A DNA stretch of 64,000 nt. It comes from Pseudomonadota bacterium. Its GTDB lineage: Bacteria; UBA10199; 2-02-FULL-44-16; JAAZCA01. A program made the position numbers and the translations under genes. Where the stretch lies: positions 33,158-97,157 of the forward strand of contig JAZDOG010000089.1 of assembly GCA_043798915.1 (NCBI GenBank). Direction: 5' to 3'. This document shows positions 15,052 to 58,091 of this stretch, in pieces (the stretch's first letter is position 1; every line of letters starts with the position of its first letter). A model generated the notes under the pieces. That model was given only the letters and a program-made list of their open reading frames with translations, was not told the DNA's origin and made no database searches.

Positions 15052-15067
15052 TGGCACGCATTTTGCT
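15052..15067 (+). promoter_or_regulatory. Consensus sigma-54 (-24/-12) promoter TGGCAC-gcatt-TTGCT.
   Basis: Exact match to TGGCAC-N5-TTGCW at 15052-15067. The downstream ORF begins at 15107 with RBS AGGAGAGG...GGGGG. Confidence 0.5.
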
Positions 15068-41749: not shown

Positions 41750-42142
41750 TCATTCTCCTTCTATCGATGACAGCTCCATCTCCCTGCCGGCGACGACAGA
41801 GACATCGCCTGAGGAGCAGGCCGGACAATCGGGCGGGAGATAGAGGGCCGGCGCATGCGCGATGTGGTGCGCGAACTCGCAATCGTCAAACCGGCTGTCG
41901 GCAAAGCGCTTCCCGCAGGGGGCGCAGGCGAGCTCCACCGGGACTTCCTCTATATCGAAGCTCATCCCTTCGAGGGCTGGGGCCTTCTCATATGACGAAA
42001 GGCAGAACTCCAGCTGCTCCCTCTGGAAGGCGGCCATCTTCCCTATCCTGAGTTTTGCGCTCGCCACCTTCGTAAAACCGTTTTCAACCGCCTTTTCGGC
42101 TACCGTCTCGATGATCGTCTGTGCAATCGACAGTTCGTGCAT
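41750..42142 (-). CDS. hypA: [NiFe]-hydrogenase nickel-insertion / maturation factor HypA.
   Basis: MHELSIAQ... N-terminal 'MHE' Ni site and two CxxC zinc motifs (CAPCG, CPACSSG). Confidence 0.85.
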   Translation of the reverse strand: MHELSIAQTIIETVAEKAVENGFTKVASAKLRIGKMAAFQREQLEFCLSSYEKAPALEGMSFDIEEVPVELACAPCGKRFADSRFDDCEFAHHIAHAPALYLPPDCPACSSGDVSVVAGREMELSSIEGE

Positions 42143-42143
42143 A

Positions 42144-42635
42144 TCACTCCCCTTTCAACCAACCGCGCTCGTCTAACGTTTTAACAATAGACTCGGCCAT
42201 CTTCGGTATCGCCTCCGCAACCTTTGGAGTCGGGCTCTCTCCAAATGAAAATTCGTCCTTCACCTCCATCACGAATATTGCGATCTCGTTCGGGAAAGGG
42301 ACGCCCATCCTCTTCGCCAGCTCGCATGCCGTGGCGAAGTCGATCTGATGGAGCGACGAGAGGCGCGCAGAAGGCTTGAGGGCGGCCGGATCCAGCTCAT
42401 AGAAATCGCCAGGCGTCCCGCCCTTCGTGTGGATGGCATCTATTATCACGGCCCTGTCGTATCCAGAAAGGAGGTCCACGAAGTTAAAACCCCCGACAGA
42501 GGCCTCTTTGATCGAGATTCGAGACTTCGACCTCAACAGAGATTCAATATCGCGCACAACATAGATGCCGGCGCCGTCGTCGGTCAGGATGGTATTCCCG
42601 AGGCCTAGAATTATTGTTTTGGAAGGCATTCTCAA
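42144..42635 (-). CDS. Hydrogenase maturation endopeptidase (HyaD/HycI family).
   Basis: 'ILGLGNTILTDDGAGIYV' motif and 163-aa size. Overlaps mvhA by 4 nt. Confidence 0.85.
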   Translation of the reverse strand: MRMPSKTIILGLGNTILTDDGAGIYVVRDIESLLRSKSRISIKEASVGGFNFVDLLSGYDRAVIIDAIHTKGGTPGDFYELDPAALKPSARLSSLHQIDFATACELAKRMGVPFPNEIAIFVMEVKDEFSFGESPTPKVAEAIPKMAESIVKTLDERGWLKGE

Positions 42636-44092
42636 CGCGTCAACTTTTGCACTACATTGCGGTCTGAATCGTAGACCACGACCTCAAGGGGCATCTGGCC
42701 GGGGAGCGAGTGCGTGGCGCAGCCGTAGCAGGGGTCGTAGGAGCGGAACGACATCTCGACCATATTGAGGAGGGCGTCGGTCACGGGCTTTCCGGCCTTG
42801 ATCACGCCCTGCGCCGCCTTCTTGATCGACATACAGATAGGCGCATGGTTGTTCGTGGTGCCGACGATGAGATTCGCCTTCGTGACGATGCCGTTCTCGT
42901 CGGTCCAGTAGTGGTGCGTGAGCGTCCCGCGCGGGGCCTCGACGATGCCGACGCCCTCCGATGGGGTCTTCGTGGGTAGCGCGCGATAGTCGGCGCCCAT
43001 TATCCCGTCGTCCTTCACGAGCTCCACGAGCCTCTCTGCGGCATACATGAGCTCGATCACACGCGCCCAGTGCATCGCCAGGTTGTGCTTCACCGGCTTG
43101 CCGCCGAGGGTCTTGTACATCTTGTCATATTCCGCCTGCGCAAGGGGCGTCGTCATCCCGTCTGCGGCGTTCAGGCGGGCAAGCGGCGTTGCCTGATACA
43201 CGCCGGAGTCCTTGCCCGAGACAAATCCCTTACAGCCGATCTTTTTGAGATATGGGAATTTGAGGTACGTCCACGGCTCAACGTGTTCAGCAACATATTC
43301 GCGGTAATCATCCGGTGCATACTTACAATGTTCCACACCATCAGGACCGACCACGCGCACCTTGCCGTCGTAGAAATTCACCTTATTGTTCCCGTCGACG
43401 AGCCCCATATAATACGTCGGGAACGTGTATGGATCTGAGAGGATGAGGTCCACGTAGGCCTTGTTCTTTAGGACGATGTCCTCGAAGACCTTTAGCGTAA
43501 ACTTCGCAAACTCCACGCCATCCGTTGCGATCTGTGCGATCCTTGTGCGCTCCTCTTTGGAAAGCCCCTTGCTCACCCCGCCTGGCAGGGCATTGATCGG
43601 ATTTACCGGCTTGCCGCCGAGGATGGCTGCGATCTCGTGGCACTCTCTGCGCGTCTTTATCACCTTGCCGCCGACCTCGAGGCCGACCTTCTTTATCACG
43701 CCGATGATGTTTCTCTCCGCCTTGGGCGCGTCCGGACCGCAGACGAAATCAGGGCCGGCGAGCGCGTAGAAGTGCGTCGTATGATCGCCGAGGAAGAACG
43801 CGCTGTACTGTAGTTCACGGAGCTTCTTTGCGGTCTCAGGGATGTCGATGCCATATACCGCATCGCACGCCTTTGCGGAAGCCATGAGATGCGCCTCGGG
43901 GCAGACGCCGCAGATGCGCGAGGTGATGCGCGGCATCTCTTCGACCGGGCGCCCCTCCGCAAATTTTTCAAACCCGCGAAGCTCCGGCACCTGAAAGTAT
44001 GCGTTGGCGACGTCGCCCTTGTCGTCGAGGAATATTTCGATTTTTCCGTGCCCCTCAAGCCTCGTCACGGGGTCTATGGTGATGCGTTTCAT
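42632..44092 (-). CDS. mvhA: [NiFe] hydrogenase large subunit, Mvh-type (group 3c-like).
   Basis: N-terminal 'RICGVCPEAH' and C-terminal 'DPCYGCATH' Ni-Fe ligand motifs. Confidence 0.9.
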   Translation of the reverse strand: MKRITIDPVTRLEGHGKIEIFLDDKGDVANAYFQVPELRGFEKFAEGRPVEEMPRITSRICGVCPEAHLMASAKACDAVYGIDIPETAKKLRELQYSAFFLGDHTTHFYALAGPDFVCGPDAPKAERNIIGVIKKVGLEVGGKVIKTRRECHEIAAILGGKPVNPINALPGGVSKGLSKEERTRIAQIATDGVEFAKFTLKVFEDIVLKNKAYVDLILSDPYTFPTYYMGLVDGNNKVNFYDGKVRVVGPDGVEHCKYAPDDYREYVAEHVEPWTYLKFPYLKKIGCKGFVSGKDSGVYQATPLARLNAADGMTTPLAQAEYDKMYKTLGGKPVKHNLAMHWARVIELMYAAERLVELVKDDGIMGADYRALPTKTPSEGVGIVEAPRGTLTHHYWTDENGIVTKANLIVGTTNNHAPICMSIKKAAQGVIKAGKPVTDALLNMVEMSFRSYDPCYGCATHSLPGQMPLEVVVYDSDRNVVQKLTR

Positions 44093-44097
44093 ATGAA

Positions 44098-45096
44098 TTA
44101 CACCTTTGCCCTTCCCAGAACAGAATTCGTCACGCCAAACCTGTAGAACGTCCCGACCGGGTCGACAAGCCCCGCCGCGATTGCCTCGCCGCGCTTCTCG
44201 TCGCCTTTGGTGTCGATCAGAGAGCCGATCGCCGAAGCCGCCCTCGCGCCCTGATCCTCAACACCTTCTGCAGGACCGTAACAGCCGCGGCACGGCATGT
44301 TCGCCTTGAGACACTGCGCCTCGCATCCGGAGCGCGTGGCCGAGCCAACGCATACAAAACCCTGCTCCAGCAAGCACTGCGGCTTGTTCTTGAGCTCCGG
44401 CCTGGGAGTCAAGTCAGGCTTGTCCAGGTGAGGCCGCTTGAAGCGCTCGATGCGGACATCCTTCGTCTTCTTCTCGAACGGGCACTCGTCGCAGACCGAC
44501 TTGTCGCCCACGCCGACGATAGAGCCCTTCGGCGGGAGTTTTCCGGAGGCGATCGCCTCTATCACATTCCACGTCTGCTTTGCGGTCGGAGGACATCCGG
44601 GGATGAAGTAATCGGCGTCCACGACATCCTTCAGCCTCATCACCGAGCTGTAGAATTCAGGTATATGCAGCTCCCCTTCCGGCATCGTCACCTTCTCCTG
44701 CGGCAGGATGCCTTTGGGATTGTCGGTCGATTCTGTGGTCTTATACGCCCGTTCAAGGATGGAATCCTTCGTGTAGAGGTTCGCAAGTGAAGGAACCCCG
44801 CCGAAGCATGAACAGGCGCCGTATGCCGCGAGCACCTTCGATTTTTTGCGGAGGAGCTCCGCGATCTCTTTCGTCTCGCTGTTTCTCACGCCGCCGTTCC
44901 AGAGGCAGACGTCTATGTAGCCATCGGCATATTTGCGGACGTCGTCATATTTGAAGTCGGCGATGCACGGCCACATCACGATATCCGCGATATCTATCAC
45001 CTTGAGTATCTTCTCCGCTATCTCAAGCGTGGAGATATCGCATCCGCCGCAACCAGCGCCCCAATATACCCCGAGTTTTAATTTTTTATCGGCCAT
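44098..45096 (-). CDS. mvhG: [NiFe] hydrogenase small subunit, Mvh-type, with an extra C-terminal Fe-S region.
   Basis: 'WGAGCGGCDIS' proximal-cluster motif and additional Cys clusters. Confidence 0.85.
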   Translation of the reverse strand: MADKKLKLGVYWGAGCGGCDISTLEIAEKILKVIDIADIVMWPCIADFKYDDVRKYADGYIDVCLWNGGVRNSETKEIAELLRKKSKVLAAYGACSCFGGVPSLANLYTKDSILERAYKTTESTDNPKGILPQEKVTMPEGELHIPEFYSSVMRLKDVVDADYFIPGCPPTAKQTWNVIEAIASGKLPPKGSIVGVGDKSVCDECPFEKKTKDVRIERFKRPHLDKPDLTPRPELKNKPQCLLEQGFVCVGSATRSGCEAQCLKANMPCRGCYGPAEGVEDQGARAASAIGSLIDTKGDEKRGEAIAAGLVDPVGTFYRFGVTNSVLGRAKV

Positions 45097-45502
45097 CGCC
45101 TCTCCAATTGAGAGGTCCCAGCTTCCTGATCTGCTCGGTCATCTCATTTGTCACCGATGCGACGCGATCGCCCTCGGAAGCTGATATCCATTCAAGGCGA
45201 AAGCGCTCTGGCTCGATGCCGAATTGACTGAGCATCTCCTTCAGGATCGGCATCCGGCCCATCGTCTTGTGATTTCCCTCTATATAATGGCAGTCGCCAG
45301 GATGGCACCCCGCCACGAGCACGCCATCGGCCCCGTCCTTGAACGCCTTGAGGATGAAGAGCGGATCGACTCGGCCCGAGCACATAACACGGACGATGCG
45401 CATGTTCGGCGCGTACTTTATGCGCGCGATGCCGGCAAGGTCAGCGCCGGTGTATGAGCACCAGTTGCAGAAAATGCCGAGTATTTTGGGTTCAAAAGAC
45501 AT
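45086..45502 (-). CDS. mvhD: MvhD-like [2Fe-2S] electron-transfer subunit (methyl-viologen-reducing hydrogenase delta subunit).
   Basis: Start moved to MSFEPKILG. Motifs 'FCNWCSY', 'MCSGRVDP' and 'AGCHPGDCHY' are diagnostic. Confidence 0.85.
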   Translation of the reverse strand: MSFEPKILGIFCNWCSYTGADLAGIARIKYAPNMRIVRVMCSGRVDPLFILKAFKDGADGVLVAGCHPGDCHYIEGNHKTMGRMPILKEMLSQFGIEPERFRLEWISASEGDRVASVTNEMTEQIRKLGPLNWRGDGR

Positions 45503-45516
45503 TTCAGCACTCCGCT

Positions 45517-47304
45517 CTATGCCAACACCCCTTCTATCTCCGCAAGCACCTGCGAATTCTTGAAGTTTTGCGCCGCTATGACGCCGCACGGACATGCCGC
45601 GACGCACGTGCCGCACCCCTTGCAGAGCGCCTCGTTCACGCGCGAGACCTTCTTATCTTCAATGTAATCTATCGCGTGGTACGGACACATGTCATTGCAT
45701 ATCCTGCAACCTGTGCAATGATCTTCGTCGATGAGTGCAGTGGCCGCGTCTATCTCGATCTTACCCTTTGCCGCGAGCATCATCGCCTGTGCCGCGGCGC
45801 CCGATGCCTGCGCGACCGTGTCCGGGATGTCCTTGGGGCCCTGGCAGCAACCGGCGATGAAGATTCCGTCGGTCGCCGTGGAGACCGGCGCAAGCTTCGG
45901 ATGCTTCTCCGCGAAGAAGCCGTCCTTGCTCTGGCAGAGAGTGAGAAGTCTGGCCACCTCCGGCGCGTCCTTCCCCGCCTCGATGGCCGAGCACAGGACG
46001 ACCATATCCACCGGCACGCGGCGTATCCGGCGCAAAAGCGTATCCTCGCACGTAACGACGAGCTTGCCCTCCTCCTCCGGATAGAGCGCAAAATCGCTGA
46101 CCGAGGCCGCCTTGCCGCGAATAAAGCGCACATCCTCCTCAAGCAGGCGATTGTAAAACTCTTCATATCCCTTGCCGAATGAGCGCATGTCGATATAAAA
46201 AGCGTATACCTCCGCGCCTGTTTTTTCCTTCACGAGGTGCGCAAACTTCAGCGCGTACATGCAGCAGACGCGCGAACAATATTCATGATAGTTTTTGTCC
46301 CGGCTTCCTATGCAATGAATTATGCCGATCGATTTTGGCTCGGAACCGTCGGCAAGGACGATCTTGCCATTGGTGGAACCGGCGGCACAGTTCATCCTCT
46401 CAAACTCAAGGCTTGTTATGACATTGTCGAACCGCCCGTAGCCATACTGCATTGTCTTGCGCGGATCAAAGAGTTGAAAACCGGTGGCGGCGATTATGGA
46501 CCCGACCTCCACCTCCCGGGTTGTGTCCTTCATCTCGTGATCGATAGCCTCGGTGGGACATATTTTCGCGCAGATCTTGCACTTCCCGTTTCTGAAGTAG
46601 ATGCACGACTGCGTGTCGATGACCGGCTTGTTGGGGACAGCCTGCATCGTGGGCACATAGATCGCGGTGTTAGGGCCAAGGGTGATGTCGCCGTGCACGA
46701 TCTTGTCTTCCATCGTCCCCGTCACACGGATATGGCCCGTAGGGCAGACCTTCGCGCAGGAGCCGCACCCGATGCACCTGTCGGAATCCACTTCAAAAGG
46801 CGTAGTGACGCTTCGCTCGATCCCCCGTCCCGCGAACGCGATGGCCTTGGCGCCGACCACCTCATTGCAGACACGGACGCAAAGGCCGCAGAGAATGCAC
46901 CCCTCTTCGCCTTTGCCGAAACGAGATTCATCAATGCCGAGTTCAGAAGCGAGCTCGCGCAGCACTTTTACCTTTGAACAGCGCGCAAGGAAAAACTCCA
47001 CCAGGAGCTTTCGAATGGACCTTATCCGCTCGTTGTATGTGACAACCTCAAGCCCTTCCTCGACGGGATAATTGCAGGCGGTCACATAACGGACCCGTTT
47101 CCCGCGACGGACCTCAACGGTGCATATCCGGCATGCCGCATAAGGCTGCACGTGTCTGTAGTAGCAAAGGGTCGGGATCTTTATCCCCAGTTTCTCCGCC
47201 GCGGCGAGTATGTACGAACCCTTCGCGACCTCAACCTCCCTGCCGTCGACGACGAGTTTGACCGTTTCCACAGGAGCTTTTGTCTTCACATTATCGTTCG
47301 CCAT
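45517..47304 (-). CDS. Fusion protein: NuoG/FdhA-like N-terminal Fe-S module ([2Fe-2S] ferredoxin, His-ligated cluster, 2x[4Fe-4S]) joined to the C-terminal half of HdrA (second ferredoxin cluster, second half of the FAD domain, C-terminal ferredoxin domain).
   Basis: Start at MANDNVKTKA. N-terminus 'CYYRHVQPYAACRICTVEV' with CILCGLC / CIGCGSC. The HdrA part begins 'DTQSCIYFRNGKCKICAKICP' and contains 'CSRVCCMYALK', 'GIFIAGCCQGPKDI', and terminal 'CTGCRIC..CP..CKGCGTCVAACP'. Confidence 0.75.
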   Translation of the reverse strand: MANDNVKTKAPVETVKLVVDGREVEVAKGSYILAAAEKLGIKIPTLCYYRHVQPYAACRICTVEVRRGKRVRYVTACNYPVEEGLEVVTYNERIRSIRKLLVEFFLARCSKVKVLRELASELGIDESRFGKGEEGCILCGLCVRVCNEVVGAKAIAFAGRGIERSVTTPFEVDSDRCIGCGSCAKVCPTGHIRVTGTMEDKIVHGDITLGPNTAIYVPTMQAVPNKPVIDTQSCIYFRNGKCKICAKICPTEAIDHEMKDTTREVEVGSIIAATGFQLFDPRKTMQYGYGRFDNVITSLEFERMNCAAGSTNGKIVLADGSEPKSIGIIHCIGSRDKNYHEYCSRVCCMYALKFAHLVKEKTGAEVYAFYIDMRSFGKGYEEFYNRLLEEDVRFIRGKAASVSDFALYPEEEGKLVVTCEDTLLRRIRRVPVDMVVLCSAIEAGKDAPEVARLLTLCQSKDGFFAEKHPKLAPVSTATDGIFIAGCCQGPKDIPDTVAQASGAAAQAMMLAAKGKIEIDAATALIDEDHCTGCRICNDMCPYHAIDYIEDKKVSRVNEALCKGCGTCVAACPCGVIAAQNFKNSQVLAEIEGVLA

Positions 47305-47312
47305 AGATCCAT

Positions 47313-49295
47313 TCACTCGATGATGACAGCCCCGAACCTGCACACTTCCTGACACGAACCGCATTTGATACAGCGGGGGCCATCAATTATATGAGGTTTC
47401 TGTTTTTTACCGCTGATACAGTTCTCAGGGCAGGACCTCACGCACAGCGTGCATCCCGTGCACTTCACCTTGTCTATCGAATAACGCACGAGCGCCTTGC
47501 AGACGCCGGCAGGACAGCGCTTGTTGAATATGTGCTCCTCATATTCGGACCTGAAATAACGAATGGTGGACAGGACCGGATTGGGTGCCGATCCACCCAG
47601 GGCGCAAAGCGACGCATCCTGAAGGACCTGCGCGATCTCGACCAGGGTGTCTATGTCGTCCGCCCTTCCCCCGCCCGCAACGATGCGGTCGAGTATCGCC
47701 AGCATGTTGCGTATGCCTTCGCGGCACGGCGCGCATTTTCCGCACGACTCATCCTTGAGGAAGTTCAGGAAATAGCGGCCGATGTCGACCATGCACGAAG
47801 TGTCATCCATGATGATCATGCCGCCCGAACCCATCATGGACCCGGCCTCTGTCAGGGTGTCAAAATCGACGGGCAGGTCGATCAGGCTCTCGGGAACGTA
47901 GTTCACCGATGGCGGGGCTGTATCGCCCAGATAATCGCGGTGTTTCCATCCGAACGTGTCCACGATGAGGCAGCCGCCCGAGGGGCCCCCGGTCTGTACC
48001 GCTTTGAAGCGGCGTCCTTCGGGAATGCCTTCGCCGAGCTCATAGAGTATTTCGCGAAGCGTGATCCCCATCGGGACCTCCAGCAGACCGGTATTCTTCA
48101 CCTTGCCGACCAGCGAGAACACCTTGGTCCCTTTGGAGCCCTCGGTCCCGATGGACGAAAACCACTCCGCCCCCCGCGCCATGATGGGGGGGATGTTCGC
48201 CCACGTTTCAACATTGTTGAGGTTCGTGGGCCTTCCCCACAGACCCGTCTCTGCGGTATGCACATACTTTGCGCGCGGCTCGCCGACCTCGCCCTCTATT
48301 GAAGCCATGAGCGCCGTGGACTCGCCGCACACGAACGCCCCACCGCCACGATTGATCTTCATGTCAAAATCAAACCCGCTGCCGAATACATCTTTGCCCA
48401 GGATCCCGTATTCGCGCGCCTTATCAATCGCCTGCGTGAATTTGCGAACCGCCTGCGGGTATTCGTGACGCACGTATATGTAGCCCTGATTCGACCCTAT
48501 GGCATAGGCGCCGATGATCATTCCCTCGATGATGGCATGCGGATCCCCTTCGAGGACGCTGCGGTCCATATATGCCCCTGGATCCCCTTCATCGGCGTTG
48601 CATATGACATACTTCACGTCTCCGGGGGCATTCTTCACTGTTTCCCATTTTCGGCCGGCCGGGAAGCCGCCGCCACCGCGGCCGCGAAGGCCCGACTTTT
48701 TCACGGCCTCGACCAGCGAATCCGGACTTTTGCGTTCGGACAATATCCTGAAGAGCGTGAAGTAACCCCCCATCGCGATGTATTGGTCTATATCATCCGG
48801 ATCGATGAAGCCGCAGTGTCTCAGGACGATCTTGAACTGCTTTGAATAGAACGGAACATCGCTCAACAGGCGTATCCCGGATATTTCCGGAGGGAGCTTG
48901 CCCGAAGAATAGCTGAACACGGATTCATCCAGGAGATTTGTCTCATTCAAAATCTTTCCAAGGGCCCATTCCGGTTTGTGCGCGCCCCCGGCAAGGGATG
49001 CAACGAGTTCGCGCGCTTTGGCAGGCGTCATTTCACTGTAGAATATCCGAGGGAAACCCGGCATCCAGACGTCGAGGATAGGTTCTTCCTGACAGAAACC
49101 TATGCAACCGGCCTCGGCAACTATCGCGTCCAGCTTCCGCTTCTCCACTTCTTCCCTCACGGCCTTCAAGACCTCGCCCGAACCTGTCGCCAGACCGCAC
49201 GTGGCCGTTCCGACCGTGATCTTGATCCTCCCGGGATGGAGCTTCGCCTCTCCCCGTTTTTTTATCTCCTGAAAGTCCCGCAAAGTTCTGATCAT
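47313..49295 (-). CDS. NuoF-like NADH-binding flavoprotein subunit (HydB/HndC-type). N-terminal thioredoxin-like [2Fe-2S] domain, FMN/NADH site, [4Fe-4S], and a C-terminal 2x[4Fe-4S] ferredoxin.
   Basis: Start at MIRTLRDF; its ATG overlaps the nuoE stop (ATGA). Motifs 'GRGGGGFPAG', 'ESCGKCAPCREG' and two CxxCxxCxxxCP. Confidence 0.85.
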   Translation of the reverse strand: MIRTLRDFQEIKKRGEAKLHPGRIKITVGTATCGLATGSGEVLKAVREEVEKRKLDAIVAEAGCIGFCQEEPILDVWMPGFPRIFYSEMTPAKARELVASLAGGAHKPEWALGKILNETNLLDESVFSYSSGKLPPEISGIRLLSDVPFYSKQFKIVLRHCGFIDPDDIDQYIAMGGYFTLFRILSERKSPDSLVEAVKKSGLRGRGGGGFPAGRKWETVKNAPGDVKYVICNADEGDPGAYMDRSVLEGDPHAIIEGMIIGAYAIGSNQGYIYVRHEYPQAVRKFTQAIDKAREYGILGKDVFGSGFDFDMKINRGGGAFVCGESTALMASIEGEVGEPRAKYVHTAETGLWGRPTNLNNVETWANIPPIMARGAEWFSSIGTEGSKGTKVFSLVGKVKNTGLLEVPMGITLREILYELGEGIPEGRRFKAVQTGGPSGGCLIVDTFGWKHRDYLGDTAPPSVNYVPESLIDLPVDFDTLTEAGSMMGSGGMIIMDDTSCMVDIGRYFLNFLKDESCGKCAPCREGIRNMLAILDRIVAGGGRADDIDTLVEIAQVLQDASLCALGGSAPNPVLSTIRYFRSEYEEHIFNKRCPAGVCKALVRYSIDKVKCTGCTLCVRSCPENCISGKKQKPHIIDGPRCIKCGSCQEVCRFGAVIIE

Positions 49296-49771
49296 AACGC
49301 CTTTTCCTTCGCCGCAGTTGTCTTCTGCGGCCGGACAAGCCTCACAGCCTTGTCCTGATTGAGCCTGCCATGGACGTTCTCGTCCACGATGACGATGGGT
49401 GCCAGGCTGCAGGCTCCGACACAGCGCACGGTCTTCAAAGTATATTTGCCATCCAGGGTTGTTCCGCCCTCTTTTATGTGCAGTTCCCTCTCCATCCTGC
49501 TCACGATCCTGTCTGCGCCTTTGACATGACAGGCCGTGCCGCAACAGACATGGACCATATGCTCGCCCTGCGGAGTCAGGCTGAAAGCCTTATAAAAGGT
49601 CGCAACCGCATAAATCTGTGTCAACGGAATATCCATTTTGTCCGCCAGATAGCGGAGGGCCTCCTGAGGCAGGTGTCTGTAGGTATCCTGAATATCTTGC
49701 ATCATCATTATGAGCGATTCCCGATCCGCGTTGTATTTGTCAATAATCGCCGCCGTTTTTTCCTGTATCAT
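49292..49771 (-). CDS. NuoE-like [2Fe-2S] thioredoxin-fold subunit (24-kDa / HoxE family).
   Basis: 'CCGTACHVKGA...CVGACSLAP' cluster motif; 159 aa. Confidence 0.85.
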   Translation of the reverse strand: MIQEKTAAIIDKYNADRESLIMMMQDIQDTYRHLPQEALRYLADKMDIPLTQIYAVATFYKAFSLTPQGEHMVHVCCGTACHVKGADRIVSRMERELHIKEGGTTLDGKYTLKTVRCVGACSLAPIVIVDENVHGRLNQDKAVRLVRPQKTTAAKEKAL

Positions 49772-49784
49772 AATCGCGTCCTTG

Positions 49785-50612
49785 TCAGTCCCAATGCCTT
49801 ACCAGGTGGTCTCCGATCCTTATCAATCTCTTTACCGGGATGCGTCTCGCAGGACACGCATTCCAGCAATCGCCGCAACCTGTGCACTTCCCCTCATCCA
49901 CATAACGGCTCTTCTTCCTGACTGTGACCTTGAAGTTTCCCACGAATCCGTCGACTTTTTCAACCTCGCTATAGGACATGAGCTCTATGTTCTGATGCTG
50001 CCCCACCTGCACCATCTTAGGGGTCAATATGCACGCCGCGCAATCGAGCGTGGGGAAGGTCTTGTCGAACTGCGCCATATGTCCGCCGATGGAGGGTTCC
50101 TTTTCGACCAGATAGACCTTCCGGCCGCTGTCGGCGATGTCCAGCGCGGCCTGTATGCCGGCGATGCCTCCTCCTATAACCATCACGTGCGGATGGACGG
50201 GAACTTCCTTCGCCTGCAACGGCTCAAGCAAAGAGGCCCTTGCAACTGCGCCGTTGATCAGCGCCTTGGCCTTCTCGGTAGCGAACACGGAGTCATCGGT
50301 CACCCATGAACAGTGTTCCCGAACATTCGCCATATGAAACAGGTATTGGTTGAGACCGGCCGTCTGGCATGCCTTGCGAAAGGTCTTTTCATGCATCAGC
50401 GGAGAGCAGGATGCGACCACGACCCGGTCGATCTTGAGCTTCTCAATATCTTCCTTGATCAGGTTCTGGCCTGGCTCCGAACACATGAACTTGTATTCAC
50501 GCACAACGGCCACATTTGGCAATGATCGCGCATAATCGCAGACCTCGTCGATCGCGACCTTCCCCGCGATGTTCGTGCCACAGTGACATATGTAGACGCC
50601 TATCTTGGGCAT
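49785..50612 (-). CDS. hdrA: N-terminal portion of HdrA (heterodisulfide reductase subunit A): N-terminal Cys domain, first half of the FAD-binding domain, and the first [4Fe-4S] motif of the inserted ferredoxin. The ORF ends there.
   Basis: '[15 protein letters not shown]', FAD motif '[30 protein letters not shown]', terminal '[12 protein letters not shown]'. Ends with an in-frame stop 13 nt before nuoE. Confidence 0.75.
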
Positions 50613-50625
50613 GGCACCTGTCCGT

Positions 50626-51513
50626 TCATTTCATATATTTTGCCAGCACGTCGTTCGCCGACACTATCTCCTGACCTATCCCGAGGTCGGCGGGGCTCAA
50701 CCCCAACGCCAGGCCTATGAGCTGGGTGAAGTAGAGTATCGGTATATCGAACTTCATCTTATATTTTTTGGCCGCACGCTGCTGATAAGCATCTATGTTG
50801 AGCTGACACAGAGGACACGGCGTGACAAGTATCTGGGCGCCGCTTCGGATCGCGCTATGCAACAGGTTCTTTATCAGCCTGAGTCCTATCCATTCCTCCG
50901 TCCCCATGAGTGCGCCCCCGCAACAGTTTGCCTTCATGGCAAAATCGACCGGGGTCGCACCGCAGACCCTCATCAAACCCTCCATCGTTTCCGGACATTC
51001 CGGATCGTCTATCTCATTTTTGGGCCTTACCACCTGACACCCGTAATAACAGCCGACCTTCAGACCCTCAAGGGGTCTGACAACGAATTGTCTCACTTTT
51101 TCGGGCCCGATATCGTGGGCAAAGACGTCCAGCAGGTGGCGGACCTTGACAGTGCCCTTGTAGCTGAGGCCTCCCTCCGACAAGGCCGCATTGACCTTCT
51201 GACGCACCTGCGGGAACTCCTTCAGGTAGTTGTTCGTCTTGTTGAGTCCCACATAACATCCGCTGCAAGGTGCGACGATCTCTCCACTTTTTTGTTCCGC
51301 AAGCGCCAGATTCCTGGCCGAGATGGCGAAGGCAGTGAGCTCCTTGATGCCCATGTATGCGGTGGCGCCGCAGCAATTCCAGTCCTCAAGTTCCACGAGC
51401 TTTGCGCCAAGTGCGGCGGAAACCACGCGCGAAGACGCATCATAAGCTTTCGACGAGGAATGCAGCGAACAGCCGGGATAATAGAGATATTCTTTCCAGT
51501 AGGTCTCAGCCAT
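50626..51513 (-). CDS. hdrB: Heterodisulfide reductase subunit B (two CCG domains).
   Basis: CCG motifs 'CCGATAY'...'CSGCY' and 'CCGGAL'...'CPLCQ'. Confidence 0.85.
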
Positions 51514-51524
51514 TAAATCACCCT

Positions 51525-52097
51525 TTAAGACATCGATTCCGCTTTCATCACTATCGCACGAAATTGTTTGCGACCTTTTATCTTATGCGCTGTCAGCGGG
51601 AGTCTCCCTTTAAGCCAAAGTCTGAGCCCGATCGTCATGTTCTTGAGGAGCGCGAACGGGTTCGTCTTCAAAAAGAAACGGAGCAAAAGCTCCATTTCGT
51701 TATTGCGGCCATATCGATTGACCACCTTCATAAAGGATTTCGCCAGATGGAATCCGCGCCATTGCAGGGAAAACCGCTCCTTGCTTGAAAGGCGTTTGAG
51801 CGCATACATGATATCGGTGACCTTGATGTTTTTCGGACAGCGGACATAACAGAAATAACAGGAGGTACAGAGCCAGATATCCGGGCTTTTGAGGACCTCC
51901 TCGCGAAGACCCGCGCGGATTTTATAGAACAGGTTGCGCGGGCTGTCCTCCATGAGATATGAGGTGGGACAGGAACCGGAGCAGGTGCCGCATTGAATGC
52001 AATCGACGATCTTCTCTCCGCCCGGGATAGCGCGCACCTCTTCCAGAAAACTCAGATCCATCTCGCTTTCGCGCTGTATGTCGCGCTTCTCGGCCAT
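51525..52097 (-). CDS. hdrC: Heterodisulfide reductase subunit C (2x[4Fe-4S]).
   Basis: 'CIQCGTCSGSCP' and 'CTSCYFCYVRCP'. Confidence 0.8.
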   Translation of the reverse strand: MAEKRDIQRESEMDLSFLEEVRAIPGGEKIVDCIQCGTCSGSCPTSYLMEDSPRNLFYKIRAGLREEVLKSPDIWLCTSCYFCYVRCPKNIKVTDIMYALKRLSSKERFSLQWRGFHLAKSFMKVVNRYGRNNEMELLLRFFLKTNPFALLKNMTIGLRLWLKGRLPLTAHKIKGRKQFRAIVMKAESMS

Positions 52098-52215
52098 CCC
52101 GCCCTCCGCCGATAAATCAGTTCATCTTGGAAGGCGTGGGCTAACACAATAAACCTCCTTCGTCAAATCGCTCACACAGATTTCACACTTACATTTTTTA
52201 CAGGGAAGGCAGCGC

Positions 52216-53586
52216 CTACATCAGTCCCAGTTCCTTCATCTTGCCATAGAGCGTCGTGCGGCCCAAATCGAGACTCCTCGCGGCCTTGCTTTTGTCGCCG
52301 TTGCATATCCGCAGGGCGTGCTCGATATACTGCCGCTCGGCACGGGCGACGTAGTCCTTGAGGGCGCCGACCGTCGCATCGGCCGTGGGGAGGCCCACCG
52401 GCGCGGCCGCGCCGGTCCTGCAGCCGTTGAGCGCCCATGACGGGAAGATCGATTCGTCGATACGGTCGCCAGGCGCCAGGATGGACAAGCTCTGGACGAT
52501 GTTCGCCAGCTCCCTCACATTCCCCGGCCAATGATAGGCCATGAGCCGCCCCATGGCCGCGGGTGTGAAGCTCTTCACCGCGCCATCCTTCGCAAACCGC
52601 GCGAGGAAATGATCGATGAGCGGCGGGATGTCCTCCACGCGCTCGCGCAGCGGAGGCATCGAGAACTGTATGACGCGCAGCCGGTGGTAGAGGTCCATGC
52701 GGAATTCGCCGCGGCTGACCTTCTCCTCGAGCAATTCATTGGTCGCCGCAATCACGCGGAAGTCGGCCTTGATGAGTTCGTTGCCGCCCACGCGGCAGAA
52801 CTCTCGCTCCTGCAATACACGCAGGATCTTCGCCTGCATGTCGGCCTTGAGGGCGCCCACCTCGTCCAAGAAAATGTCGCCTCCGTCGGCGAGCTCAAAC
52901 TTGCCGAGCCTGCGCTTTATGGCGCCGGTGTAGGCGCCAGCCTCGGCGCCGAAGAGCTCCGCCTCGATCAGGTTGTCGGGGATGGCCGCGCAGTTGACTG
53001 CGATGAAAGGTCTGCGGGCATCGCCCTCGATGCGGTGTATGTGGCGGGCCAGGAGTTCCTTGCCGGTGCCGGTCTCCCCGACGATCAGGACGTTTGCCCC
53101 GTGGCCTTTGAGCTGCTCCGTCTGGGAGAGGATGCCGCTCACCGCGGCGCTCCTGTGTATTATGCCGGGACAGCAACTTCCGGTGTTTTGGGCCTCGACG
53201 AGGGCGTCGTACCGCTCGCGCACGCGGCGCGCAGCCGCCTGCCTCTCGGCTATCGCCTGAAGCTCCTCCATGTCGAAGGGCTTGGTGAGATAATCGATCG
53301 CACCGGCGCGTATGGCCTCGACCACCGTCTTCGGATCGCGTTGGCCAGACAGGATGACGATGTCCACGGCGGGGTCGACGGATTTTATTCGGCGTATGCC
53401 CTCTATTCCATTCTCCCTGCCAAGCCCAATATCCAGAAGGACCATATCGATCGAACCGCCCCGCATCAGCGACAATCCCTCCTCTATGGACGGCGCGGTG
53501 GAGACGGCAAATATCCCGTGAAGCTGCATGCGCATGCCGATGAGAAAATCTGGATCGTCGTCGATGCAAAGAACTTTATACGTCAT
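52216..53586 (-). CDS. Sigma-54-dependent response regulator (NtrC family); no adjacent kinase.
   Basis: Start moved to MTYKVLCIDDD (GGAGGA RBS 4 nt upstream). Receiver 'MVLLDIGLG...YLTKP'; 'GETGTGKE'; 'GAYTGA'; C-terminal HTH. Confidence 0.85.
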   Translation of the reverse strand: MTYKVLCIDDDPDFLIGMRMQLHGIFAVSTAPSIEEGLSLMRGGSIDMVLLDIGLGRENGIEGIRRIKSVDPAVDIVILSGQRDPKTVVEAIRAGAIDYLTKPFDMEELQAIAERQAAARRVRERYDALVEAQNTGSCCPGIIHRSAAVSGILSQTEQLKGHGANVLIVGETGTGKELLARHIHRIEGDARRPFIAVNCAAIPDNLIEAELFGAEAGAYTGAIKRRLGKFELADGGDIFLDEVGALKADMQAKILRVLQEREFCRVGGNELIKADFRVIAATNELLEEKVSRGEFRMDLYHRLRVIQFSMPPLRERVEDIPPLIDHFLARFAKDGAVKSFTPAAMGRLMAYHWPGNVRELANIVQSLSILAPGDRIDESIFPSWALNGCRTGAAAPVGLPTADATVGALKDYVARAERQYIEHALRICNGDKSKAARSLDLGRTTLYGKMKELGLM

Positions 53587-53615
53587 AAGTTCCTCCATGT
53601 TTTCATCCTTATCTT

Positions 53616-53631
53616 AGCAATTTTCGTGCCA
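53616..53631 (-). promoter_or_regulatory. Consensus sigma-54 promoter TGGCAC-gaaaa-TTGCT on the minus strand, about 30 nt upstream of the regulator start codon.
   Basis: Reverse complement of 53616-53631 is TGGCACGAAAATTGCT, an exact TGGCAC-N5-TTGCW match. Correct spacing to the GGAGGA RBS and ATG at 53586. A TGTTC-N8-GAACA inverted repeat at 53749-53766 is a possible activator site. Confidence 0.55.
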
Positions 53632-56687: not shown

Positions 56688-58091
56688 ATGAAGACGGCTG
56701 ATCTCGATATTCTCGTCCAAGAGGGTGAGAGCACGACGCTGGAGTTCAAAGAGGGGCTGTCGTCGTCGTTCGCGCGCGAGCTGGTTGGGATGGCCAACAC
56801 GATCGGCGGCAAAGTTTTGCTCGGCGTTCGGGATGATGGCGCGGTGCTCGGCCTGACGGACTCCAACGCCTTGCGTGCCCGTGTCCAGGATATCGCCCGA
56901 AACTGCGATCCGCCAGTGGAGGTAGTGGTCGAACTGGTGGGGCGGGTGCTGGTGGTGCATGTTCACGAAAGCAATGCCAAACCGGTACAGTGCAGCGACG
57001 GCTTCTTCTGGCGGCAAGGGGCTGCTACTCAAAAGCTTTCTCGGGACGAAGTTAGGAATTTCTTCCACGCCGAGGGTGCGATACATTTCGACTTATCGCC
57101 TTGCCCGCGCTTCCGCTATCCGGAGGACTTCGACCGCGAGAAATACGCTGCGTGGCTGGAGCTCAGTGGCATCAGCGGACGGCCGAGCACGGAGGATGTG
57201 CTGGTCAATATCGAAGCCGCCGAGCGCACGGGTGGAAAACTCTTGTTCCGCAACGCGGGCGTGCTGTTCTTTGCCAAGAATGTTCGGCACTTTTTTAACC
57301 ATGCCTACGTCACATGCCTTTTGGCCAAGGGCACCGACAAGGTTCGTGTGCTGGACCGCAAAGATTTCGACGGTGGCATTGTGGCCGATATACAGGACTC
57401 CATGCGTTTCATCGAACGCAACACTCGAACCGCCTGGCGTATCGAAGGTCTGCGCCGGGAGGACATCCCCGAGTATCCGATGAAAGCCCTGCGCGAAGCT
57501 ATCACCAATGCGGTCATGCACCGCGATTGGTTCGTTGATGGGGCCAATGTTTTCGTGGAGATATACACCGATCGGATCGAAATCTCGAGCCCTGGCGGCC
57601 TGCCAAAGGGCATGAAGCTTTCCGACCTTGGCCGCAAGAGCATCCGACGCAACGCCCTTATCGCCGATTTGCTCCATCGCATAGAGTTCATCGAAAAGGC
57701 GGGAACTGGCATAAAGCGGATTCGCGACGAGGCACACGAGCAAGGCTGCCCCGAGCCGGTTTTCGAGGTGGACGGCTTTTTTACTTCGATATTCCGCCCA
57801 AATCCCGAAGTCAGGGCCCAAGCTGGGGTTGTAGCCAAATCATCGACCGGGGAAGTCACCGGGGAAGTCACAAGGCTTCTGGCCGTCATGTCCAGCGAGA
57901 TGAAACGCAAGGAAATCCAAGAGGCTCTGGGGCTTAAGCACGAGGACCACTTTCGGGAAGCGTATCTTTTGCCGGCTATCAGGGCTGGAGTTGTCGAATT
58001 GACAATCCCCGATAGACCCAGAAGCAGCAGGCAACGCTACCGCCTGACGGCCAAAGGGCGCAGTCTGTTGAGGAAGAAAAACAAGGAGTGA
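56688..58091 (+). CDS. AlbA_2 (divergent AAA / Schlafen-like) + HATPase_c_4 + C-terminal wHTH protein ('putative DNA-binding/ATP-binding transcriptional regulator' architecture).
   Basis: N-terminal 'ESTTLEFKEG...GGKVLLGVRDDGAVLGL' AlbA_2 signature, followed by a GHKL-like region and a C-terminal helix-turn-helix. Confidence 0.65.
   Translation: MKTADLDILVQEGESTTLEFKEGLSSSFARELVGMANTIGGKVLLGVRDDGAVLGLTDSNALRARVQDIARNCDPPVEVVVELVGRVLVVHVHESNAKPVQCSDGFFWRQGAATQKLSRDEVRNFFHAEGAIHFDLSPCPRFRYPEDFDREKYAAWLELSGISGRPSTEDVLVNIEAAERTGGKLLFRNAGVLFFAKNVRHFFNHAYVTCLLAKGTDKVRVLDRKDFDGGIVADIQDSMRFIERNTRTAWRIEGLRREDIPEYPMKALREAITNAVMHRDWFVDGANVFVEIYTDRIEISSPGGLPKGMKLSDLGRKSIRRNALIADLLHRIEFIEKAGTGIKRIRDEAHEQGCPEPVFEVDGFFTSIFRPNPEVRAQAGVVAKSSTGEVTGEVTRLLAVMSSEMKRKEIQEALGLKHEDHFREAYLLPAIRAGVVELTIPDRPRSSRQRYRLTAKGRSLLRKKNKE

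Follow-up and report, generated by a model that had tools for sequence, protein, structure and literature searches.

Electron bifurcation lets anaerobes reach potentials below those of their substrates, and four enzyme families that carry it out are known. Here we analyse twelve closely packed genes on the minus strand (41750-53631) of the window, a 64,000-nucleotide stretch of contig JAZDOG010000089.1 from a Pseudomonadota bacterium, in which the flavoprotein HdrA is encoded in two halves with genes of a Bfu-type module between them. In HdrA enzymes, MvhD and the C-terminal ferredoxin domain make up the input, the inserted ferredoxin domain is the low-potential output, and HdrC and HdrB form the high-potential branch (bioRxiv 10.64898/2026.04.10.717634; PMC12054007). 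In Bfu enzymes, as described by Schut et al. 2022 (PMC9304861), electrons enter via BfuA (A4, A2, A1) and are bifurcated to NAD+ and ferredoxin at BfuBC. The sole characterised complex joining HydBC/Bfu-type and HdrA-type modules, via a BfuA-like subunit and an MvhD-like adaptor, is BCRII (BamBCDEFGHI; cryo-electron microscopy preprint, bioRxiv 10.64898/2026.04.10.717634), and, according to its authors, no earlier report describes a supercomplex with two distinct bifurcation modules. A flavoprotein module that binds NAD(P)H sits at the inserted ferredoxin domain in type III HdrA of ANME-1 and Bathyarchaeota (PMC12054007) and in HdrL of Desulfobacterium autotrophicum (PMC2702500). The Bathyarchaeota form is clustered with mvhADG; repeated origins have been proposed for the insertion, which would take the place of ferredoxin access (PMC12054007).

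HdrA in two complementary halves around a Bfu-type module

The proteins encoded by the twelve genes were compared with Pfam, NCBIfam and PDB (Table 1). A first-pass annotation, made from the letters of the window, had proposed an HdrA split into complementary halves by a NuoE/NuoF/NuoG-like NADH module. The NCBIfam HdrA2 model, which describes an HdrA-MvhD fusion, is tiled by three genes: HdrA-N matches positions 1-256, the fusion gene 262-640 and MvhD 647-774. On this profile, HdrA-N and the fusion score 387 and 444 bits against a cut-off of 1100, and neither passes. All HdrA domains are present, divided over two genes. HdrA-N contains the N-terminal cluster domain and the first half of the flavin adenine dinucleotide (FAD; TrxR-like) domain with GGGIAG; of the inserted ferredoxin domain it holds the first Cys motif (49851-49886), after which comes a 21-residue tail. 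The HdrA part of the fusion contains the inter-motif segment and the second Cys motif CIYFRNGKCKICAKICP (46555-46605), and it supplies what remains of the FAD domain along with the C-terminal ferredoxin domain. The motifs and the remainder of the FAD domain lie where the first-pass annotation had placed them, but its breakpoints had to be moved: it had HdrA-N ending exactly after the first motif, which the tail follows, and the fusion resuming with the second motif, about 35 residues too late, so that the inter-motif segment belongs to the fusion. The tiling also speaks against each hdrA-like open reading frame (ORF) being a complete, independent paralogue, and in unsplit relatives the two halves are contiguous. 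The division of HdrA and its conservation are near-certain, and this comparison shows that HdrA is encoded as two complementary polypeptides which, judged from their domain limits, must reassemble.

The FAD-binding signatures and the flavin lysine of HdrA are found across the two halves. CSRVCCMYALK and GIFIAGCCQGPKDIP in the fusion, as well as CIYFRNGKCKICAKICP, are invariant in 18 homologues, and the FAD motif GIFIAGCCQGP, of the GxxxAGxCxGP type, sits in the C-half. Residue K353 of the fusion is aligned to Lys409 of 5ODC HdrA, the lysine beside the flavin N5 (PDB alignment, counted by hand); the role of this lysine is described in the BCRII preprint (bioRxiv 10.64898/2026.04.10.717634). Because the Rossmann motif lies in the N-half and the CCMYALK lysine together with GxxxAGxCxGP in the C-half, FAD binding requires the two halves together.

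The two Cys motifs of the inserted ferredoxin domain are likewise distributed one per half, and the four Cys of the HdrA-N motif are retained in 27 of 27 separate or BfuC-fused HdrA-N genes. Since both motifs of the BfuA part are taken by its own clusters, and the HdrA-N motif and CIYFRNGKCKICAKICP are partners in unsplit HdrA, the ferredoxin domain appears to be rebuilt across polypeptides, and the two motifs would jointly bind its two [4Fe-4S] clusters across the subunit interface. In the PDB alignments the halves overlap at HdrA residues 234-256, where the aligner matches the last CxxCxxCxxxCP of BfuA to the first HdrA motif. The assignment that this suggests, the second BfuA motif serving as the first motif of HdrA, was rejected, as both BfuA motifs are needed for the two clusters of BfuA and the HdrA-N motif is strictly conserved. 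A mixed MAFFT alignment for structure prediction, which put the first motif of HdrA-N and of unsplit HdrA on the second BfuA motif, was misleading and was dropped. An AlphaFold2 prediction of the HdrA-N and fusion concatenate, run without an alignment, was not used (mean predicted local distance difference test score 35, predicted template modelling score 0.25).

Synteny in related genomes bears out the split arrangement. We fetched genome and metagenome contigs (numbered with an L below), and the cassette set consists of the window and 35 of these contigs; all 36 loci carry the fusion gene. In 26 of the 36, hdrA-N lies upstream in the same locus, separate or fused to BfuC, and most of the other ten are short or end at a contig edge; L026 has hdrA-N although the ORF classifier missed it there, and part of the upstream sequence of L031 is masked. 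The carriers span more than ten phyla (Zixibacteria, Acidobacteriota, Ignavibacteria, Calditrichota, Aminicenantes, Armatimonadota, Verrucomicrobiota, Planctomycetota, Desulfobacterales, Chloroflexota and, among archaea, Thermoplasmata), and the exact order hdrC-hdrB-hdrAN-bfuC-bfuB-bfuA::hdrAC-mvhD-mvhG-mvhA-hycI is found, for example, in L001, L005-L007, L012, L029 and L030. The best 120 protein-cluster matches to the fusion are 582-603 residues long, with at least 97% coverage and 57-84% identity. At 50% clustering, the junction occurs in about 13 of the best 150 representatives; the family is widespread and compact in sequence. HdrA-N and BfuC form one in-frame ORF in L022, L025, L027, L047 and L069, with the four motif Cys kept and a linker of about 15-35 residues.

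An unsplit HdrA, 65-68% identical to both halves, is encoded by L033-L036 (Krumholzibacteriota), in an operon hdrC-hdrB-hdrA-mvhD-mvhG-mvhA-hycI-hypA that is otherwise identical to that of the window. Its junction, CP-GTRVPRKG-NVHEKLSLGP (L033:7296-9257; also L034, L036 and L037), combines a tail like that of HdrA-N with a fusion-like VHxxxxLGP, a hybrid which places the insertion point directly after the first motif. In a neighbour-joining (NJ) tree of the HdrA C-half, built without support values, these unsplit forms nest beside the fusion of the window. By sequence, they could be either a sister or pre-split type of the split clade or a product of re-fusion after loss of the Bfu genes.

The first-pass annotation was right that an NADH module is inserted at the gene level, but PDB and Pfam place the module with HydBC/Bfu and not with plain NuoEFG. 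BfuC matches HydC 8a6t_C (E 4e-40), WorC 9mqx_C and NfnC 9n5u_C. For BfuB the PDB matches are 7T2R_B (E 6e-208), 9BOV_B, 9N5U_B, 8OH5_B, 7Q4V_B and 9MQX_B, and the alignment with 7T2R_B is full-length with all cluster-ligand Cys matched. In Pfam, BfuB carries a weak N-terminal 2Fe-2S_thioredx (Trx-like) domain, Complex1_51K, NADH_4Fe-4S and two C-terminal Fer4 (2x[4Fe-4S]). Schut et al. (PMC9304861) tell bifurcating BfuB from NuoF by its two end domains, Trx-like at the N-terminus and 2x[4Fe-4S] at the C-terminus. The three proteins thus show the features of a Bfu enzyme: BfuB as an FMN/NAD(H) subunit with clusters B1-B5, BfuC with a [2Fe-2S] thioredoxin-like fold, and BfuA with A1, A2 and A4 (Type 2, without A3 and A5).

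The BfuA part of the fusion holds a [2Fe-2S] motif and two [4Fe-4S] CxxCxxCxxxC motifs (46738-46899), corresponding to A1, A2 and A4. Its Cys 47, 58, 61, 77, 136, 139, 142, 146, 177, 180, 183 and 187 are invariant in 18 homologues, and it aligns with WorA 9MQX_A without any difference in length. Compared with HydA 8A6T_A it lacks the His-cluster stretch, where it is about 25 residues shorter; the region around LARCSKVKV... has neither His nor HxxxCxxC and a single, non-conserved Cys. The His-ligated cluster that had been read into the N-terminus of the fusion is therefore absent. In the NuoEFG module of complex I, NuoG has a His-ligated N5 cluster and a molybdopterin-like C-terminal domain, and NuoF lacks extra ferredoxin domains; the operon shows no HxxxCxxC, no molybdopterin-like domain and no adjacent nuo genes, and BfuB has the extra N- and C-terminal cluster domains. 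From these comparisons, the inserted module is a HydBC/BfuBC electron-bifurcating core with a WorA-like BfuA, and bifurcating catalysis is predicted for it. With a module of Bfu type rather than NuoEFG, ferredoxin is a likely fourth substrate.

Relative to the solved BfuB structures, BfuB of the window has an insertion of about 24-26 residues, DTFGWKHRDYLGDTAPPSVNYVPES (47886-47963, minus strand). This insertion is found only in a sub-clade with compact operons (the window, L001, L005-L007, L009, L011-L013, L029 and L030).

Electron flow and alternative readings

We lean towards reading the operon as one soluble, multi-subunit, H2-oxidising complex with two different bifurcating sites in series, in which electrons would run from H2 to the FAD of HdrA and on to Bfu. 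That the genes encode a single complex is highly probable on the evidence of their arrangement, and the direction of electron flow, taken by itself, has about an even chance of being right. The supercomplex of the first-pass annotation is in line with the HdrA2 tiling, the contiguous halves of the unsplit relatives, the recurrence in 36 loci and the five HdrA-N::BfuC fusions, which together argue against both an artefact and two unrelated enzymes. The same annotation had taken the NADH module as an electron input, probably the wrong direction, as the module sits on the low-potential output branch of HdrA.

In the proposed cascade, MvhAG would oxidise H2 and pass the electrons via MvhD to the FAD of HdrA. 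Bifurcation there would send the high-potential electron via HdrC to HdrB, where a disulfide is reduced, and the low-potential electron to BfuA and then to the flavin/cluster site of BfuBC instead of to free ferredoxin; a second bifurcation at BfuBC would reduce NAD+ and ferredoxin. If the two halves of the inserted ferredoxin domain come together as proposed, with BfuA fused ahead of the second, the clusters of this domain would adjoin A4 of BfuA, and in WorA (9MQX_A), the best PDB match of the BfuA part, electrons are admitted at the C-terminal A4 end. The wire would then run from FAD through the inserted-ferredoxin clusters to A4, A2, A1 and BfuB. Such a cascade is the simplest reading of an A4-side end fused to the inserted ferredoxin domain together with a complete Mvh/MvhD set at the input.

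The net reaction would be, roughly, 4 H2 + 2 RSSR + NAD+ + Fd(ox) -> 4 RSH + NADH + Fd(red), where RSSR and RSH stand for disulfide and thiol and Fd for ferredoxin. Taking H2 at -414 mV, heterodisulfide at -140 mV, NADH at about -280 mV and ferredoxin at about -500 mV (PMC9304861), a rough calculation puts the mean potential of the acceptors at about -265 mV. By a similarly rough estimate, the reaction would be exergonic down to about 1 Pa H2, whereas the limit would be tens of Pa for Mvh-Hdr on its own and about 0.1 bar for an enzyme of the HydABC type. If this is true, the complex is a two-stage 'voltage multiplier' with which uncultured anaerobes of soils and sediments could draw both NADH and reduced ferredoxin from trace H2, paying for it with a disulfide. 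Where environmental genomes carry group 3c hydrogenase genes of this kind, these would then point to NADH plus ferredoxin as products and not to ferredoxin alone, and the complex would be a natural test case for the disputed Bfu mechanism under very low-potential input. The wider proposal, a widespread class of cytoplasmic hydrogenase supercomplexes with HdrA and Bfu sites hard-wired in series and with the two [4Fe-4S] clusters of the linking ferredoxin domain built across two polypeptides, is put forward only tentatively.

The alternative that survives best, although we consider it rather unlikely, keeps the same complex with Bfu reversed: BfuBC would confurcate NADH and reduced ferredoxin into HdrA, either for disulfide reduction (with H2 as an alternative or co-donor) or, in a reverse confurcating mode, for H2 evolution via Mvh. 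Bfu enzymes are reversible (PMC9304861), BamGHI are a confurcating input to the HdrA-like BamE in BCRII (bioRxiv 10.64898/2026.04.10.717634), and for type III HdrA an NADH donor has been proposed to act through the module at the same site, again clustered with mvhADG (PMC12054007). Variant loci without Mvh or Fdh also exist. However, BamI of BCRII passes its electrons to the MvhD-like adaptor and the C-terminal ferredoxin domain, whereas BfuA here is fused to the low-potential exit of HdrA, and the operon retains the full MvhD/MvhG/MvhA input with its own maturation genes. Moreover, electrons of about -390 to -400 mV that enter the low-potential arm would reach FAD productively only in a thiol-oxidising confurcation, which is estimated to need very low H2 and has no obvious physiological benefit.

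Several points weigh against the cascade from H2 to Bfu itself. The direction of electron flow is taken by analogy with canonical HdrA and is its weakest step, and in BCRII, the one characterised enzyme with both module types, the Bfu module is a donor (bioRxiv 10.64898/2026.04.10.717634). The pairing of the HdrA-N and fusion motifs is drawn from conservation and ferredoxin-fold logic. In the variants just mentioned (L021, L023-L025, L027), MvhD is present with no obvious hydrogenase or Fdh, so that no external couple of low or mid potential may be available other than NAD(H)/ferredoxin at Bfu. The split forms are not cleanly monophyletic in the quick NJ tree of the HdrA C-half, and no cultured carrier was found: the best 80 genome matches and all named cluster members are metagenome-assembled genomes (MAGs).

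A second alternative, in which interleaved genes encode two separate enzymes, an Mvh-Hdr complex and an independent BfuABC-type NADH/ferredoxin oxidoreductase, is very improbable. It is true that each module type works alone elsewhere, as with the PDB matches, and that a shared operon is no proof of a shared complex. Nevertheless, the interleaved order is kept across phyla, neither HdrA half binds FAD alone by its domain limits and profile tiling, and covalent fusions already contradict such a separation, BfuA being one polypeptide with the HdrA C-half in more than 120 protein clusters and HdrA-N with BfuC in five loci. An artefact, of which the first-pass annotation had warned, or decay (a frameshifted, mis-assembled or pseudogenised hdrA with a foreign insert and no function) is barely credible, since, although the window comes from a MAG and the BfuA part of the related locus L061 has a possible frameshift, identical breakpoints are found in the 36 loci, taken from different studies and assemblers, the cofactor-binding residues are all invariant, and the tight spacing suits translational coupling, with intact maturation genes downstream.

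Operon layout, regulation and variant loci

The order of the genes on the minus strand, from the activator gene first to hypA last, agrees in the ORF coordinates and the NCBI gene calls with that given by the first-pass annotation. The NCBI calls for the source MAG have identical lengths (595, 660 and 275 residues) and generic names; the cassette described here explains why automatic annotation yields nothing more specific. Intergenic gaps range from -11 to 14 nt, except for a 118-nt spacer between the activator gene and hdrC. Within the run from hdrC to hypA the packing is as tight as had been described, with the exception of the gap between the fusion and mvhD, which at 14 nt exceeds the maximum of 13 nt given there; the BfuC and BfuB genes overlap by ATGA.

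Table 1. Features of the operon region, in coordinates of the window
Feature	Position	Strand	Evidence
sigma-54 promoter-like site TGGCACGAAAATTGCT	53616-53631	-	exact TGGCAC-N5-TTGCW match; upstream of activator gene
sigma-54-dependent response regulator (receiver + AAA+ + HTH_8)	52216-53598	-	Pfam Sigma54_activat E 1.6e-62, Response_reg, HTH_8
hdrC-like, two [4Fe-4S] motifs	51525-52097	-	Pfam Fer4_17/Fer4_8; NCBIfam CoB_CoM_SS_C E 6e-26, below cut-off
hdrB-like, two CCG domains, disulfide-reducing site	50626-51513	-	Pfam CCG E 5e-26, two stretches; NCBIfam CoB_CoM_SS_B E 4.5e-65, below cut-off
hdrA-N, 275 residues	49785-50612	-	PDB HdrA 8rvv_A residues 1-256, E 2e-106; HdrA2 profile 1-256
BfuC/HydC-like [2Fe-2S] thioredoxin-like subunit	49292-49771	-	Pfam 2Fe-2S_thioredx E 2.8e-48; PDB HydC 8a6t_C E 4e-40
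BfuB/HydB-like FMN/NAD(H) subunit, 660 residues	47313-49295	-	Pfam Complex1_51K, NADH_4Fe-4S, Fer4 x2; PDB 7t2r_B E 6e-208
BfuA::HdrA-C fusion gene, 595 residues	45517-47304	-	BfuA part and HdrA C-half
BfuA-like part of fusion, residues 1-~199	46708-47304	-	Pfam Fer2_4, Fer4_7; PDB 9mqx_A (WorA) residues 5-189, E 3e-38
HdrA C-half of fusion, residues ~200-595	45517-46707	-	HdrA2 profile 262-640, E 1e-132; PDB HdrA residues 234-642, E 1.5e-113
mvhD, [2Fe-2S] adaptor hydrogenase-HdrA	45086-45502	-	Pfam FlpD E 4e-55; HdrA2 profile 647-774
mvhG, [NiFe]-hydrogenase small subunit	44098-45096	-	Pfam Oxidored_q6; NCBIfam VhuG E 4e-67, below cut-off
mvhA, group 3c-type [NiFe]-hydrogenase large subunit	42632-44092	-	Pfam NiFeSe_Hases; NCBIfam VhuA E 8e-117, below cut-off
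HycI-type hydrogenase maturation protease	42144-42635	-	Pfam HycI E 4e-13; same place in related loci
hypA nickel metallochaperone	41750-42142	-	Pfam HypA E 6e-28

The hydrogenase has the features of group 3c, namely RICGVCPEAH and YDPCYGCATH in MvhA as the L1 and L2 motifs (defined as xCGxCxxxH and DPCxxCxxH; PMC6085437), a small subunit and MvhD/FlpD. In NCBIfam it comes closest to VhuA, VhuG and VhuD, without reaching the cut-off of any of them. HdrB has two CCG stretches and HdrC matches the Fer4 dicluster families in Pfam. No protein of the operon reaches a curated NCBIfam equivalog cut-off; HdrB and HdrC stay below those for CoB-CoM specificity.

The first-pass annotation had put the whole unit behind a sigma-54 promoter and its activator. 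An activator gene does precede hdrC, but the promoter-like site lies before the activator gene and none lies before hdrC. The 118-nt spacer contains no sigma-54 consensus at up to 1 mismatch, and the interval between activator and hdrC contains no sigma-54 promoter, sigma-70 promoter or terminator exceeding chance. At up to 1 mismatch the window holds 4 matches to the sigma-54 consensus against 1.76 expected, so that the site at 53616-53631 is suggestive only. A second exact consensus, TGGCACGCATTTTGCT, lies outside the operon region at 15052-15067 on the plus strand. Similar sigma-54 activators occur near the cassette in several related loci, and sigma-54 control of the whole unit is plausible from the gene arrangement.

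The flanking genes (RNase R, a TPR protein, DUF4912 and a GH57 branching enzyme) are unrelated. Adjoining the GH57 gene, and likewise unrelated to the operon, is a plus-strand gene (56688-58091) with Schlafen/AlbA_2, HATPase_c_4 and Fic-like C-terminal domains.

Among the 36 loci, 23 have mvhG and mvhA directly after mvhD, and others have an Fdh-like gene instead. A Dehalococcoidia variant (L003:10880-18008; L004) reads hdrAN-bfuC-bfuB-fusion-mvhD, followed, in place of MvhGA, by an Fdh-like molybdopterin protein and then by another complete hdrA together with hdrCB. The module that donates at mid potential thus appears to be exchangeable, feeding through MvhD. In L003 (5825-8962) and also in L017, L021 and L025-L027, BfuB is about 1045-1064 residues long, extended by GltD/NfnB-like Fer4_20 and Pyr_redox_2 domains, and for these variants NADP(H) may be a further substrate.

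Sets of a HATPase_c protein, a sensory-type [FeFe]-hydrogenase-like protein and a PHP+HATPase_c protein are typical of hydABC operons. Such a set (with Fe_hyd_lg_C and FeS domains in the hydrogenase-like protein, and a kinase-like PHP+HATPase_c protein) occupies a stretch of about 3.9 kb between hdrA-N and bfuC in L008 (1408-5283), a stretch also present in L010, L014, L015, L017-L020 and L028. Its content hints that the Bfu module was derived from a HydABC-type locus.

Three other kinds of locus depart from the common layout. In a deltaproteobacterial MAG (L061:7126-9784), hdrA-N is followed directly by BfuA::HdrA-C with no bfuC or bfuB between them, and the BfuA part lies in two frames, which could be either a frameshift or a real split. 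The fusion-like gene of a Fidelibacterota chromosome (L031:7554-9491) matches only from about residue 103 of the BfuA part, and the partly masked 8 kb upstream of it gave no match to hdrA-N or bfuCB. Finally, two unsplit HdrA genes have an in-frame TGA (L051:7878-7880, L078:7869-7871) at the Cys of FPTLDCSA*IL. Selenocysteine is known in some HdrAs, and the TGA probably encodes it here.

Comparison with known systems

With the methanogen MvhAGD-HdrABC complex (PDB 5ODC, 8RVU/8RVV, 7BKB) and bacterial hdrCBA-mvhDGA, the operon shares the same six subunit types, in the order of the unsplit bacterial relatives, as well as the CCG domains, the signatures of the FAD domain and NiFe motifs of the group 3c type. 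It differs in that HdrA is made as two polypeptides, with the cut in the inserted ferredoxin domain behind its first Cys motif, and in that BfuCBA is inserted where free ferredoxin or polyferredoxin normally takes the low-potential electron. Another NADH-linked Hdr complex with an MvhD-like subunit is reportedly FlxABCD-HdrABC of Desulfovibrio, whose NADH-binding subunit is said to be unrelated to NuoF/HydB, with HdrA intact and no hydrogenase. The Pfam results for the operon proteins contain no Flx-like domains.

With the BfuABC/HydABC family (NiFe-HydABCSL 7T2R, FeFe-HydABC 8A6T/7Q4V, NfnABC 9N5U, WorABCSL 9MQX), the locus has in common BfuC, BfuB and a WorA-like BfuA with A1, A2 and A4. The difference lies in the third-substrate module, which here is a second bifurcating flavoprotein, with BfuA fused into it, and not a catalytic domain or simple redox partner. 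The passages of the Bfu classification (PMC9304861) covered by the search list no Hdr- or Mvh-linked type besides Bam-Bfu, and one supplementary file of that paper has no mention of Hdr or Mvh.

Type III HdrA and HdrL, conceptually closest in placing an NAD(P)H module at this very site, carry a single GltD domain within one polypeptide, whereas here a three-subunit module of bifurcating type is involved and HdrA is made from two genes; Pfam found no GltD, Fer4_20 or second Pyr_redox_2 in the operon proteins of the window. In some related loci (L003), GltD-like domains are fused to BfuB and not to HdrA. If the proposed wiring is correct, the ferredoxin insert of HdrA is a general docking or insertion point for partner modules.

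No published description of the split HdrA-Bfu arrangement was found in the literature searched, outside subscription journals. Papers naming HdrA together with NuoE/F were considered as precedent and set aside, as they concern unrelated gene clusters. The component families are known, and their combination with a split HdrA is apparently undescribed in the literature searched.

Besides type III HdrA and HdrL, the nearest precedent is BCRII, which likewise has two energy-coupling sites in series, a property proposed here from the genes alone. No AOR-type (BamB/BamC) or extra polyferredoxin genes are present in 41750-53631 or its flanks. In BCRII the BfuA subunit, BamI, feeds the C-terminal ferredoxin domain and the MvhD-like BamF, that is, the HdrA input, and the inserted ferredoxin domain leads to the tungsten enzyme (bioRxiv 10.64898/2026.04.10.717634). 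In the window, by contrast, the hydrogenase stands at the HdrA input, and the fusion joins Bfu to the inserted ferredoxin domain. HdrA is also split and single, not a fused double HdrA as in BamE, and HdrB and HdrC are separate genes, BCRII having an HdrD-like BamD. The cassette is far more widespread than BCRII, extending over more than ten phyla, here in uncultured genomes only, with H2 or in some variants an Fdh-like donor. If the cascade from H2 through HdrA to Bfu is true, it would be the second case of two bifurcation modules in one supercomplex, with a wiring opposite to that of BCRII.

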